From NCBI GenBank assembly GCA_964398315.1, contig CAYNMV010000029.1:1-47690 (forward strand): DNA of 47,690 nt. Direction: 5' to 3'. The DNA comes from an uncultured Tepidisphaeraceae bacterium (GTDB lineage Bacteria; Planctomycetota; Phycisphaerae; Tepidisphaerales; Tepidisphaeraceae). Positions within the stretch are counted from its first letter, which is position 1; every line of letters starts with the position of its first letter. Positions 1 through 4,514 of this stretch are shown one piece after another. A program made the translations under genes and the position numbers. The notes beneath the pieces were generated by a model. The model searched no databases and was not told where the DNA came from. It worked only from the letters and a program-made list of their open reading frames with translations.

Positions 1-513
1 ATCACCGGCCGCGGGGTTGTCTTCGACGGCCTGAGCACCGACTGCTACACGATCGCATACCAGCGCAAGAGCGATTGCATGAGCCACGATCCGCTGGATG
101 AGGTCATCACACTGGAGGCGGGCGCGGGTTCGATCACCCTCGGCGAACTGCTGGACATGGCCCGGAACCTGGTCGGCCCGGATGCGCAGCTCGAGCTGCC
201 GCGCGAGGTCCTCTGGAAATTCGCCTGCAACGCCTGCCGGGATGAGGAGACGGTCTTCCTTTCGCTGGGGAAAGTGCAGTCCGATCAGGCGCGCTGCCCG
301 CGTTGCCAGGCGATGCGGGATGTCCGCACATTCCACAAGATCGTGGGCGATGAGCACTTCCTGGACCGCACCCCGGCGCAGATCGGCCTGCCCCCGCTGG
401 ACATCCTGACCGCCCGCGGCGGCGGCCGGGCGATCGGGCTGGAGCTGACCGGCGATGCAGCCGAGGTGCTGGGTGAGCTTTTCGCAGGTGAGGAGTCACT
501 GGAGTGGACGTGA
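1..513 (+). CDS. 3'-terminal fragment (the start lies upstream of the window) of a putative E1-like (ThiF/MoeB-family) activating enzyme. The assignment is tentative.
   Basis: The ORF is open from nt 1 in frame +1 (ITGRGVVFDG...), so the gene starts upstream. It carries two CxxC pairs (CNAC ... CPRC), as in the zinc-binding C-terminal region of E1-like enzymes. Its stop overlaps the JAB gene start (TGATG overlap at 511-515). It also sits in an operon with JAB and E2 genes. No Rossmann or ATP-binding motif is visible in the window. Confidence 0.35.
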   Translation: MTGRGVVFDGLSTDCYTIAYQRKSDCMSHDPLDEVITLEAGAGSITLGELLDMARNLVGPDAQLELPREVLWKFACNACRDEETVFLSLGKVQSDQARCPRCQAMRDVRTFHKIVGDEHFLDRTPAQIGLPPLDILTARGGGRAIGLELTGDAAEVLGELFAGEESLEWT

Positions 514-1313
514 TGGCTCGACCAAGCTCGTCCCGCTCTCTCGGGACCCAACCAGCTTCGCCGCCGGCGGACTCGCCTGATATATCCCAGGCAGCCGCCA
601 GCTTCGAGGAGGGTGAGGTCCGCGATGTGGGTGCCATCCGCGCTGATGCCTGGCCCCGCCGCGACCTGACCCCCTGCCCCAAAGGGCGAACCGAGGGCTT
701 CCAGGTCATCTTCCAGAAGCCGGTGCTGCAAGCCATCCATGCCCATGGCAAGAGCCTGACACAGATCGAAATTTGCGGCTTCCTCATTGGCAATGTCTTC
801 CACGATGATCGCGGGCCGTTCCTGCACATCACCGGCAGCATCGAGGGGCGTCACGCCACCCACCATGCCGCCCAGGTGACCTTCACCAGCGCCACCTGGG
901 ACTACGCCCATGAGGTACTGGAGCAGGCGTACCCGGGACAGCGGATCGTCGGCTGGTACCATACGCATCCGGATTTCGGTGTATTTCTGTCAGGGATGGA
1001 CCTGTTCATCCAGGATAATTTCTTCAACCTGCCGTGGCAGGTGGCGCTGGTCTACGATCCGGTGCGCGGGGATGAAGGGGTATTCATCTGGCGGAACGCC
1101 ACCAGTGAGCGCGTGGCCCACCTGGTTCACGATGGCACCTGGACAGATGAGTCGGCGACAGATCCCTCGGCGCCGGCTGCTGCGCCCGCGGCGGTGGACG
1201 AGCATCCTCCCCCACCGGATGAACCCGAATCGCCGCCCGCGTCCAAACCGGCGCCGCGGCGATCGCTGCTGCGTGGCTGCCTGCGTGCTTTGGATCGCTT
1301 CTTTGACGAATAG
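504..1313 (+). CDS. JAB/MPN-domain metalloprotease with a complete JAMM motif (a deubiquitinase-like isopeptidase), carrying a low-complexity N-terminal region and a Pro-rich C-terminal tail
   Basis: A conserved Glu is present (EICGFLIG) and the full JAMM signature HxHx7Sx2D is present in WYHTHPDFGVFLSGMD. The MPN core spans roughly residues 78-205. The start is GTG at 504 or ATG at 513; either gives TGATG-type translational coupling with the upstream ORF. Confidence 0.8.
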   Translation: MDVMARPSSSRSLGTQPASPPADSPDISQAAASFEEGEVRDVGAIRADAWPRRDLTPCPKGRTEGFQVIFQKPVLQAIHAHGKSLTQIEICGFLIGNVFHDDRGPFLHITGSIEGRHATHHAAQVTFTSATWDYAHEVLEQAYPGQRIVGWYHTHPDFGVFLSGMDLFIQDNFFNLPWQVALVYDPVRGDEGVFIWRNATSERVAHLVHDGTWTDESATDPSAPAAAPAAVDEHPPPPDEPESPPASKPAPRRSLLRGCLRALDRFFDE

Positions 1314-1319
1314 CTGCTG

Positions 1320-2641: not shown

Positions 2642-3646
2642 ATGCCGAGCCTGATCCTCCAATTCGATGGCAATCCCCCGGACAAGAAGCGCTGCGGTGG
2701 GGTATTCCATGGGCGCGTGCTCATCGGGCGCAAAGCCGTCTGCGACCTGGTCATCGACGACCCTGCGGTGTCGCGCGTCCATGCCTGGATCGAACCGCGC
2801 AACGGCGGCTGGTACATCGGCGATACCGGCGGGGCCAACGGGGTGAGCATCAACCAGCAGCGCATCGATCGCGGCGCCATGCTGCAGGATGGGGACCAGA
2901 TCGAGATCGGCCCGGCACGGCTGACCTTCCATACAGGCGAGGCGCTGCCGCGCGGCATCCGCCTGCTGGCGCTCGACCAGGCCGGCCAGCCGCCGCCTCC
3001 CGACCCGACCGGCATGCTGGTCAACTGCGCCTGCGGCGCGCCACAGTGGGTACCGGCCGCCCGCGCGGTGCGGGAAAGGACCTGCCGCCACTGCGGCGCG
3101 GCCGTGCGCCCGGATGCTCCTGCCGGCGACAGTTCACCGACCGACAGCATCGCAGACGCCGCCCCCACATGCAGTATCTGCCAGTGCGCCATCATCGCAG
3201 GTGAGGCAACCCAGACCTGCCCGGATTGCCAGCTCGTTTTCCACGCCGACTGCTGGCGTGAGAACCTGGGGTGCAGCGCCTATGGCTGTCCGCAGGTGAA
3301 CGCGCTGGCGTCCGAGCCGGTCTACCGGCCCATCCTGCCCAGCACCGGGCCGATTTTTGAATCTCCCGCCCCCGAAACCAACCGCACACCCTGGGAACAC
3401 CTGCTCCTGATCGCAGCGGTCCTCGCCACCGTGCTGGGGATGCTCGCGTTTGGCACGCCGGCATTGGTCGTGGCGCTGCTGGCACTGATCCTGCTCCTGC
3501 GCGGCCGGACACGGCCGCTGGCCCGATCCACCGCGCCGGCCGCCCAGGTTGAACTGCGCCGGCCGATCCTCATCGCCTCACTGCTGCTGTCGTTGGGTGG
3601 CGCGATCGGCGGGATTTTCACATCCTGGGCCTGGTGGATGCGGTGA
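2642..3646 (+). CDS. N-terminal FHA domain, a CxC...CxxC zinc-ribbon-like pair, a RING/PHD-like treble-clef cysteine cluster, and two C-terminal TM helices (putative membrane-anchored E3-like adaptor)
   Basis: FHA domain at aa ~22-97 (GRVLIGRKAVCDLVIDDPAVSRVHAWIE...NGVSINQQRI...GDQIEIGPARLTF). Zinc-ribbon-like pair CAC...CRHC at aa 129-151. Cysteine cluster at aa 177-216 with spacing C-x2-C-x-C-x10-C-x2-C-x4-H-x2-C-x5-C-x4-C (CSICQCAIIAGEATQTCPDCQLVFHADCWRENLGCSAYGC). Hydrophobic helices at aa ~254-288 and 307-330. Confidence 0.7.
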   Translation: MPSLILQFDGNPPDKKRCGGVFHGRVLIGRKAVCDLVIDDPAVSRVHAWIEPRNGGWYIGDTGGANGVSINQQRIDRGAMLQDGDQIEIGPARLTFHTGEALPRGIRLLALDQAGQPPPPDPTGMLVNCACGAPQWVPAARAVRERTCRHCGAAVRPDAPAGDSSPTDSIADAAPTCSICQCAIIAGEATQTCPDCQLVFHADCWRENLGCSAYGCPQVNALASEPVYRPILPSTGPIFESPAPETNRTPWEHLLLIAAVLATVLGMLAFGTPALVVALLALILLLRGRTRPLARSTAPAAQVELRRPILIASLLLSLGGAIGGIFTSWAWWMR

Positions 3647-3830
3647 GGCGGATGGGGGTCTGCGGAATCACCGATCAGCCCACCTGCCCCCATGACACAC
3701 CCGCACAATGCGGTAGTGCCCGGCATATTGCCAACCGCCCGCCCTGCCCGTATCACTGGTCGTGAATGGCAAGTCGTTGACAGCCTTGCCCTGTGAGCAT
3801 GCCGATTCACACGGCTCGTCGATGCGGTAG

Positions 3831-4514
3831 ATGGGTGTTGTCATGATCGAGTTCAAGTGCCAAGGGTGTGGAAAGGCGTTCAGCGTGCCCGACCAGTTCG
3901 CCGGGCGCCGGGCCAGGTGCAAGGCATGCGGGGCGGCCGTGGTGGTCCCCGCGCGGCCCGACCCCACCCGGCAAGTCGCACCGCAGCGAGCGCCGCTCCA
4001 GACCGAATCGCTCCCCCTGCGTACGCGCCGGCTGCTGGCCGAAGCCGATCAGATGCGCCGAGCATTCGGGAAATCGGACCTGGTCCGCCTCGATGCGGCG
4101 GAAGGGAATCCGCCGGAGCGCTATCGCATCCGCTATTTTGTGCGCGGGCTGGAGCGTCCCGCCGGCCAGTCCGAGCCGGTCGAACGGCGCGAGCACCTGG
4201 TGGAAATCGAGTGCACCAGCGAGTACCCGCGCATCAGCCCGCGCTGCCGAATCCTGACACCGATTTTCCATCCCAACTTCGACGAGGCGACCATCTGTGT
4301 TGGCGACCACTGGACCGCCGGTGAACGGCTGGTCGACCTGGTCATGCGCATCGGCGAGATGATCGCCTACCAGGCATACAACATTAAGAGCCCGCTCAAC
4401 GGCGAAGCCGCCATGTGGGCCGACCTGAACCAGGACAAGCTGCCAACCGATACCTGCGACCTGTATGCCCTGGTGGATACCGCGCTGCACGGTCCCGCCG
4501 GCACGACACCGTAA
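3831..4514 (+). CDS. UBC-fold E2-like conjugating enzyme with an N-terminal CxxC...CxxC zinc ribbon
   Basis: The N-terminus reads CQGCGKAFSVPDQFAGRRARCKACG. The core contains the canonical E2 HPN motif followed by a cysteine 7 residues later (ILTPIFHPNFDEATICVGDHW; Cys ~156), matching the HPN...C spacing of eukaryotic-type E2 active sites. A TTGACA hexamer lies in the 184-bp upstream spacer. Confidence 0.7.
   Translation: MGVVMIEFKCQGCGKAFSVPDQFAGRRARCKACGAAVVVPARPDPTRQVAPQRAPLQTESLPLRTRRLLAEADQMRRAFGKSDLVRLDAAEGNPPERYRIRYFVRGLERPAGQSEPVERREHLVEIECTSEYPRISPRCRILTPIFHPNFDEATICVGDHWTAGERLVDLVMRIGEMIAYQAYNIKSPLNGEAAMWADLNQDKLPTDTCDLYALVDTALHGPAGTTP

Follow-up and report, generated by a model that had tools for sequence, protein, structure and literature searches.

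What kind of ubiquitin-like conjugation system is encoded at the start of a contig from an uncultured Tepidisphaeraceae bacterium, and what might it act upon? The window analyzed here is a stretch of 47,690 nucleotides (contig CAYNMV010000029.1). It begins with five co-directional genes (positions 1-4514), for which an initial annotation had proposed a membrane-associated system that conjugates a ubiquitin-like protein (Ubl) and is gated by phosphorylated threonine (phospho-Thr), with activating (E1), conjugating (E2) and ligating (E3) enzymes and a deubiquitinase (DUB). It is likely that the window begins within a chromosomal six-gene operon in the order Ubl, E1, JAB, TM-FHA, FHA-RING and E2 (TM, transmembrane), which codes for a membrane-associated cascade that conjugates and deconjugates a YukD-type Ubl. 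The initial observation was correct and clearly exceeds what chance would give. The list of open reading frames (ORFs) has all five genes on the + strand at the coordinates initially annotated, and the assigned identities were upheld by Pfam matches and by alignment of homologs:

Positions 1 to 513, + strand: C-terminal fragment of an E1, comprising its last 170 residues, truncated by the window edge.
Positions 513 to 1313, + strand: JAB/MPN (JAMM) metallopeptidase, matching PF01398 and Prok-JAB, with an alternative start (GTG) at 504.
Positions 1320 to 2573, + strand: multi-TM FHA protein (TM-FHA), with about six TM helices and a C-terminal FHA fold.
Positions 2642 to 3646, + strand: FHA-RING protein, a predicted membrane-anchored RING E3 with FHA domain, zinc ribbon, C4HC3 RING and TM helices.
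Positions 3831 to 4514, + strand: E2, with an N-terminal zinc ribbon and a UBC fold.

The E1 frame, open from the first base, ends with LEWT and a TGA codon (511-513), which overlaps the ATG of the JAB gene (513-515) in a TGATG, as annotated. The gap between JAB and TM-FHA is 6 nt (CTGCTG, 1314-1319), not 7 nt, while the spacings of 68 nt (TM-FHA to FHA-RING) and 184 nt (FHA-RING to E2) were correct. The latter extends to 196 nt if E2 begins at the Met of a conserved MIxFxC motif (3843), which is its likely start. No promoter-like or terminator-like sites were found in window positions 1-6200, and the array is uninterrupted.

The operon was traced in other genomes by a scan that used one genome per species and resulted in 137 confirmed matches at 79 loci. 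Nearly all are from metagenome-assembled genomes of Tepidisphaerales and Phycisphaerales, with a few from Pirellulales and one from Blastopirellula. Exact-protein look-ups on long contigs returned the order YukD-ThiF-JAB-(TM-FHA)-(FHA-RING)-UQ_con, all in one direction, and a shorter form, ThiF-JAB-(FHA-RING)-UQ_con. Loci were classified by tblastn and ORF clustering, and 47 had enough flank. The full set is present in the same order in 22 of these 47, so that the gene neighborhood is indeed conserved. Variant B (11 loci) has neither TM-FHA nor a recognizable Ubl, a further 11 loci are partial (several due to missed or fragmented ORFs), and 3 carry the E3 alone. E1, E2, RING and JAB are co-encoded in the window and, in the same order, in dozens of related loci. 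Public annotation lists the Ubl as "EsaB/YukD family" and both TM-FHA and FHA-RING as "FHA domain-containing protein"; under these labels, the operon goes unrecognized in genome records.

The modifier itself was found in the relatives. Directly upstream of E1, they code for an 89-residue beta-grasp Ubl of the YukD family (PF08817, 5.4e-14), which also matches EccD weakly. Its C-terminus reads LR[LI][QLN]PEITAG in 38 of 38 loci. The stop follows right after the Gly in 13 of them (12 as annotated, plus the stop codon in locus L051), and in the other loci, unrelated tails follow that reach ~60 residues. In the protein collection, 2437 Ubl clusters were found; the best 120 of these all contain LQPEITAG, with 55 terminating at the Gly and 65 carrying tails of 1-63 residues. 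It is a hallmark of processed, C-terminally activated Ubls that the terminal Gly is invariant and that extensions beyond it are dispensable. Because the invariant Gly is followed either by a stop or by a variable tail, we infer that the Ubl is a processed and conjugated modifier with Gly89 as its mature end. The mean pairwise identity over 23 loci is 77% for the Ubl, 62% for E1, 56% for E2, 45.5% for TM-FHA, 43% for JAB and 34.5% for E3. This hierarchy resembles that of the eukaryotic ubiquitin system.

The E1 fragment has no Pfam family match of its own. It aligns end to end, with 43-58% identity, to the C-terminal ends of 13 complete E1s in related operons, which belong to the ThiF family and have 403-415 residues. 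By this alignment, ORF 1..513 is confirmed as the C-terminus of a ThiF/UBA-type E1, in agreement with the initial annotation. It contains a CxxC...CxxC zinc ribbon (C76, C79, C99, C102; nt 226-306), and the four Cys are invariant in the alignment. The full-length E1 of locus L003 matches ThiF (3.5e-53); of the solved structures, those of UBA7, UBA1, SAE2 and UBA3 come closest to it, before ThiF/MoeB. The GAGALGNE nucleotide-binding motif, CYEC, and the Cys of RRSCNLL followed by PTTPT are conserved in 51 E1 homologs. It is thus in relatives that the adenylation motifs and the conserved Cys were observed. In canonical E1s, a ubiquitin-fold domain at the C-terminus recruits E2; a profile of the E1 C-terminal domain found no relative among solved structures.

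The assignment of the second product to JAB/MPN holds (PF01398, 9.4e-14; Prok-JAB, 8e-9). Its JAMM metal site (E...HxH...S..D; EICG, HTHP, SGMD) is complete and is kept in at least 90% of 56 homologs, 49 of which have a C-terminal TM helix. This helix is missing from the window protein and from that of its closest relative (L006), which, judged by these homologs, have lost it. The protein is predicted to be both a Ubl-processing and a deconjugating enzyme.

The placement of the last product in the UBC fold was likewise sustained. It matches UQ_con (3.8e-8; 33.5 bits against a curated Pfam cut-off of 27), and its best solved relatives are UBE2N/Ubc13, with the HPN (residues 147-149, nt 4269-4277) and the catalytic Cys156 (nt 4296-4298) aligned. 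By sequence, it is a canonical UBC protein, with UBC fold, HPN and a catalytic Cys 7-8 residues downstream. An N-terminal CxxC...CxxC zinc ribbon (C10, C13, C30, C33; nt 3858-3929) precedes the UBC fold. At least 90% of 58 E2 homologs keep the HPN, the catalytic Cys and the Cys of the ribbon.

The FHA-RING protein has an N-terminal FHA domain (residues 1-98; Pfam FHA, 6.4e-18), a zinc ribbon (C129, C131, C148, C151; nt 3026-3094), a C4HC3 RING (C177, C180, C193, C196, H201, C204, C211, C216; nt 3170-3289) and 2-3 C-terminal TM helices (nt 3392-3622). The window protein itself stays below the threshold for Prok-RING_1 (0.007, 16.7 bits against a cut-off of 29.1). All 23 aligned homologs match Prok-RING_1 (PF14446; E <= 0.01, best 2.6e-8), and the window protein can be placed in Prok-RING_1 at the family level. 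The 23-homolog alignment reveals an invariant module, C-x2-C-x12-C-x2-C-x4-H-x2-C-x6-C-x4-C, with the eight ligands of a predicted C4HC3 cross-brace; all 12 zinc ligands of ribbon and RING are invariant. The C4HC3 pattern has been noted for prokaryotic RINGs (PMC11354881). An AlphaFold2 model is confident over the FHA domain and the RING, with a pLDDT (predicted local distance difference test) of 85-96 across the RING. A fold search returned FHA matches only (e.g., GarA and OdhI). We predict that the protein is a membrane-anchored RING E3. A profile of the E2 ribbon matches 66 of 76 E3 homologs (best 1.6e-11 within this small set) and none of 153 JAB, E1 and TM-FHA ORFs. On profile evidence, the ribbons of E2 (3858-3929) and E3 (3026-3094) are the same module, and this ribbon may be a shared docking element. 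With these enzymes, the full E1-E2-E3-DUB repertoire is supported by domain identities and conserved catalytic residues, as predicted functions.

The TM-FHA protein has six long helices, the first two of which (TM1 and TM2) are separated by a helical stretch of ~55 residues, and an FHA fold at residues ~320-417 (Pfam FHA, 7.3e-13). Because the number of helices is even, its N-terminus and its FHA domain would both be cytoplasmic, and the ~55-residue segment would be periplasmic. The helical bundle has no convincing relative among solved structures. TM-FHA and FHA-RING are the two predicted membrane proteins in the window operon; with these and with a JAB that is anchored in most relatives, the proposed membrane association stands.

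Are these FHA domains phospho-Thr readers? In FHA domains that bind phospho-Thr, the phosphate is held by Gly-Arg, Ser-x-x-His and Asn/Thr-Gly. The E3 domain keeps canonical ligands (G29, R30, S44, R45 and H47 are invariant in the 23 homologs) and is a plausible phospho-Thr reader. In a profile-profile alignment, the multi-TM protein has Gly-Ser for Gly-Arg and Gly-Pro-Arg-His for Ser-Arg-x-His, and the replacements are conserved. Because these two elements are replaced, the phosphate-holding residues are absent, and the domain probably mediates phosphate-independent contacts. Plausibly, only one of the two FHA domains in the operon can read phospho-Thr. The two zinc ribbons and this noncanonical FHA domain are additions to the initial annotation. 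On its proposal of phospho-Thr gating, the two domains differ. The E3 FHA domain keeps the ligands. The multi-TM FHA domain has lost them, and no Hanks motif for a Ser/Thr kinase, which the initial annotation had suggested might co-occur, was detected by crude regular expressions for the catalytic loop within 10 kb of the 79 loci or in the window. Such gating of the cascade can be suggested only by inference from the sequences. Overall, the functional reading of the initial annotation was largely right, while gating is unproven and half-contradicted.

Two variants shed light on the history of the parts. Locus L084 (1-8047) is more distant and codes for a Ubl, an E1, a TM-anchored JAB, a TM-FHA ortholog, a RING protein and an E2. 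Its RING protein is soluble, has a double Prok-RING and lacks FHA. As L084 has TM-FHA and its RING protein lacks FHA, the FHA domain on the ligase appears to be a lineage-specific addition, with TM-FHA common to both forms. The L084 E2 has a 530-residue extension and is followed by the gene for a trypsin-like protease. In proteins of the same E2 clade (P0373-P0441), the UBC fold is N-terminal and is joined to long extensions (~530 residues), of which one has PEGA domains. In variant-B loci, no Ubl ORF was found upstream of E1. A conserved noncoding element of ~230 nt is located just upstream of E1 in variant B (L014, 7604-7843; L031, 7576-7848; eight other loci). It opens with a promoter-like TTGAC...TATATGA, after which come conserved hairpins and a variable insert; of 31 predicted pairs, only 2 covary. 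It has no Rfam match in L031, and no tRNA was found in the ten carrier loci. Locus L004 lacks the element and has two tRNA genes. The element may be a regulatory leader.

Based on parts that were identified by sequence comparison, a course of events can be proposed. JAB would trim the tail of the Ubl, exposing Gly89, and would also reverse conjugation. E1 would adenylate the Ubl Gly and carry the Ubl on the conserved Cys of the RRSCNLL loop, from where it would be handed to Cys156 of E2. At the cytoplasmic face of the inner membrane, the C4HC3 RING of E3 would dock the charged E2, and the canonical FHA domain of E3 would choose the substrates, possibly phospho-Thr proteins. The six-helix FHA protein would be a fixed partner, acting as scaffold, sensor or substrate. 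The targets of such a cascade are most likely membrane or envelope proteins.

Several points weigh against this cascade. The Ubl and the catalytic half of E1 are outside the window, and their presence upstream is deduced from relatives. The C-terminal motif of the Ubl is Ala-Gly, not Gly-Gly. The JAB proteins of the window and of L006 lack the membrane anchor, and the FHA domain of the multi-TM protein is without canonical phosphate ligands. Because FHA matches swamped the fold search, it is the sequence that supports the RING fold. Neither a kinase nor a phosphatase is consistently linked to the operon loci. The searchable literature yielded neither biochemical evidence for this type of operon nor an experimental study of a membrane-bound YukD-based one.

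The genes that follow the operon in the window code for a xanthine/uracil permease, an epimerase and SppA, as well as for MiaB-like radical-SAM enzymes, a polysaccharide deacetylase, a GT87 enzyme and PilM. The permease gene (4515-5951) is listed with a TTG start that abuts the stop codon of E2, but translation probably begins at the Met of MNFLQTYF near 4623, which would leave ~108 nt after the operon. The window has no tRNA and no Rfam matches. In 21 loci, a gene for a ~745-residue protein with Wzz and P-loop AAA_31 domains (bacterial tyrosine kinase type, BY-kinase type) is divergently upstream of the Ubl, together with Bac_transf and WecG; in L003, it is encoded at 3801-6191 (- strand). 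The gene also occurs in three other arrangements and so adjoins the Ubl operon in at least four in Tepidisphaerales; besides the 21 loci, those with the gene include L004, L017, L057, L066 and L071. It was not found in those Pirellulales loci whose upstream flank was long enough (L059, L070). The association may reflect a functional tie or nothing more than lineage synteny, and we treat it as a lead only. Genes for SpoIIE/PP2C phosphatases adjacent to the operon in L003 were considered as operon partners and rejected because they are not conserved in other loci.

What, then, is the cascade for? The initial annotation had suggested antiviral defence, and bacterial E1/E2/JAB operons do act in defence, with uncharacterized ones predicted to do so (PMC10557695). 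A conflict system of the Bil or type II CBASS sort would, upon infection, attach the Ubl to phage or effector proteins. PADLOC returned superfamily-level matches of E1 and JAB to CBASS E1-E2, BilD and JAB models, but none for the Ubl, E2 or either FHA protein. The operon has no E1-E2 fusion and no CD-NTase, and no relatives were found on viral contigs. The neighbors of the operon in the window are housekeeping genes (among them the purine permease, epimerase, SppA, MiaB-like enzymes and PilM). Synteny with the exopolysaccharide cluster is stable across many Tepidisphaerales. Because of this synteny, the housekeeping neighbors and the very strong conservation of the Ubl, the operon looks vertically inherited, with a cellular function, rather than like a mobile defence island. 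A defence function is unlikely, and we give very little credence to a Bil- or CBASS-like system. Even more improbable, in our view, is a system without covalent conjugation, in which the YukD-like protein would be an assembly factor of a membrane machine and E1 would perform some other adenylation chemistry. The Pfam matches of the Ubl to YukD and, weakly, to EccD, as well as its public label, fit such a role, and the action of YukD in assembling type VIIb secretion systems (T7SSb) is reportedly non-covalent. YukD is assigned to T7SSb core-complex assembly (PMC12637312). An assembly factor would, however, not account for the invariant C-terminal Gly with its disposable tails, nor for the conserved and always co-encoded E2 (UBC fold with HPN and Cys), RING and JAMM peptidase; moreover, the conserved neighbors included no conspicuous EssC/EccC ATPase or WXG100 gene.

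Two further readings accept the cascade and differ in its purpose. It might serve degradative quality control of membrane proteins, with a tag similar to that of endoplasmic-reticulum-associated degradation, instead of reversible signaling. The E3, the DUB and the partner protein are membrane-embedded, and proteases occur nearby (the trypsin-like protease after E2 in L084; an M48 peptidase near variant-B operons). These protease neighbors are, however, not conserved across the variants, and none of the examined loci has a linked AAA+ unfoldase or proteasome-like gene, which leaves degradation as a doubtful though arguable purpose. It is tempting to speculate that the operon provides a vertically inherited, housekeeping membrane ubiquitylation, in which FHA-RING reads Ser/Thr phosphorylation and tags the envelope machinery, particularly the adjoining Wzc-like BY-kinase/exopolysaccharide export. 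This is a tentative idea and rather unlikely to be correct in full. If true, it would be a bacterial counterpart of phospho-dependent membrane ubiquitin signaling, with a modifier conserved in ubiquitin-like fashion.

The initial annotation considered the arrangement to be without precedent, which is not the case. Related Ub/E1/E2/RING/JAB operons are on record from Actinobacteria, Planctomycetes and Acidobacteria (PMC4197634; for Planctomycetes also PMC10557695), and the E3 family of the window operon matches Prok-RING_1. Both papers cite Burroughs, Iyer and Aravind (2011, Mol Biosyst), and bacterial operons with rare RING-type E3s remain uncharacterized (PMC10557695). The operons of the 2011 study, which predicted this kind of operon by comparative genomics, have the same component list and the same RING family (PF14446), and there is probably no difference in kind. 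The locus belongs to this already described kind of operon, with some new descriptive detail. In its abstract, the 2011 study is said to propose that YukD-like Ubls are conjugated by such systems, and the Pfam entry PF14446, derived from that study, reportedly states that TM helices occur in the bacterial RING versions. What the present analysis adds in detail is the variability of the Ubl tails, the degenerate FHA domain, the TM anchor of JAB, a zinc ribbon common to E2 and E3, and the link to a BY-kinase gene.

Among other systems, the operon of Caldiarchaeum subterraneum (and Asgard archaea), with Ub, E1, E2, a small RING protein and Rpn11, is the closest that has been reconstituted (PMC5654768). 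It has the same compact set of Ubl, E1, E2, RING and JAMM DUB, and its E1 and E2 are eukaryote-like, as are the planctomycete ones. Its modifier is, however, a true ubiquitin, whereas the planctomycete one is YukD-type and ends with Ala-Gly. In addition, the planctomycete E3 has FHA, zinc ribbon and TM helices, and the operon has a multi-TM FHA partner; the small RING protein of Caldiarchaeum is reportedly soluble. Bil (BilABCD), type II CBASS Cap2/Cap3 and Bub share an E1, an E2 and a JAB or other DUB, enzymes that act on a Ubl or on the C-terminus of a target. They are not known to possess a RING E3, FHA proteins or membrane anchoring. Compared to Bil and CBASS, the planctomycete operon has only superfamily-level model matches, and its context is not defence-like. 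With the eukaryotic FHA-RING ligases RNF8, CHFR and Dma1, only the FHA-RING logic is in common. The planctomycete RING is a C4HC3 Prok-RING_1, unlike the C3HC4 RING of the eukaryotic proteins, and is accompanied by a zinc ribbon and TM helices. As the RING protein of L084 lacks FHA, the planctomycete fusion is confined to a lineage and probably arose independently of its eukaryotic counterpart. YukD/EsaB of T7SSb is of the same beta-grasp family (PF08817) as the operon Ubl, and, to judge by terms that co-occur in T7SSb papers, membrane components with FHA domains are likewise present in T7SSb. Among the neighbors of the operon loci, no T7SS genes were seen. We know of no conjugation of the T7SS YukD, nor of E1, E2, RING or JAB partners for it. 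The planctomycete operon offers several handles, namely Gly89 as the mature end of the Ubl, the catalytic residues, a single plausible phospho-Thr-reading FHA domain, and exopolysaccharide export as a candidate target neighborhood. As a bacterial Ubl-E1-E2-RING E3-DUB operon, it is among the nearest prokaryotic analogs of the eukaryotic ubiquitin cascade.

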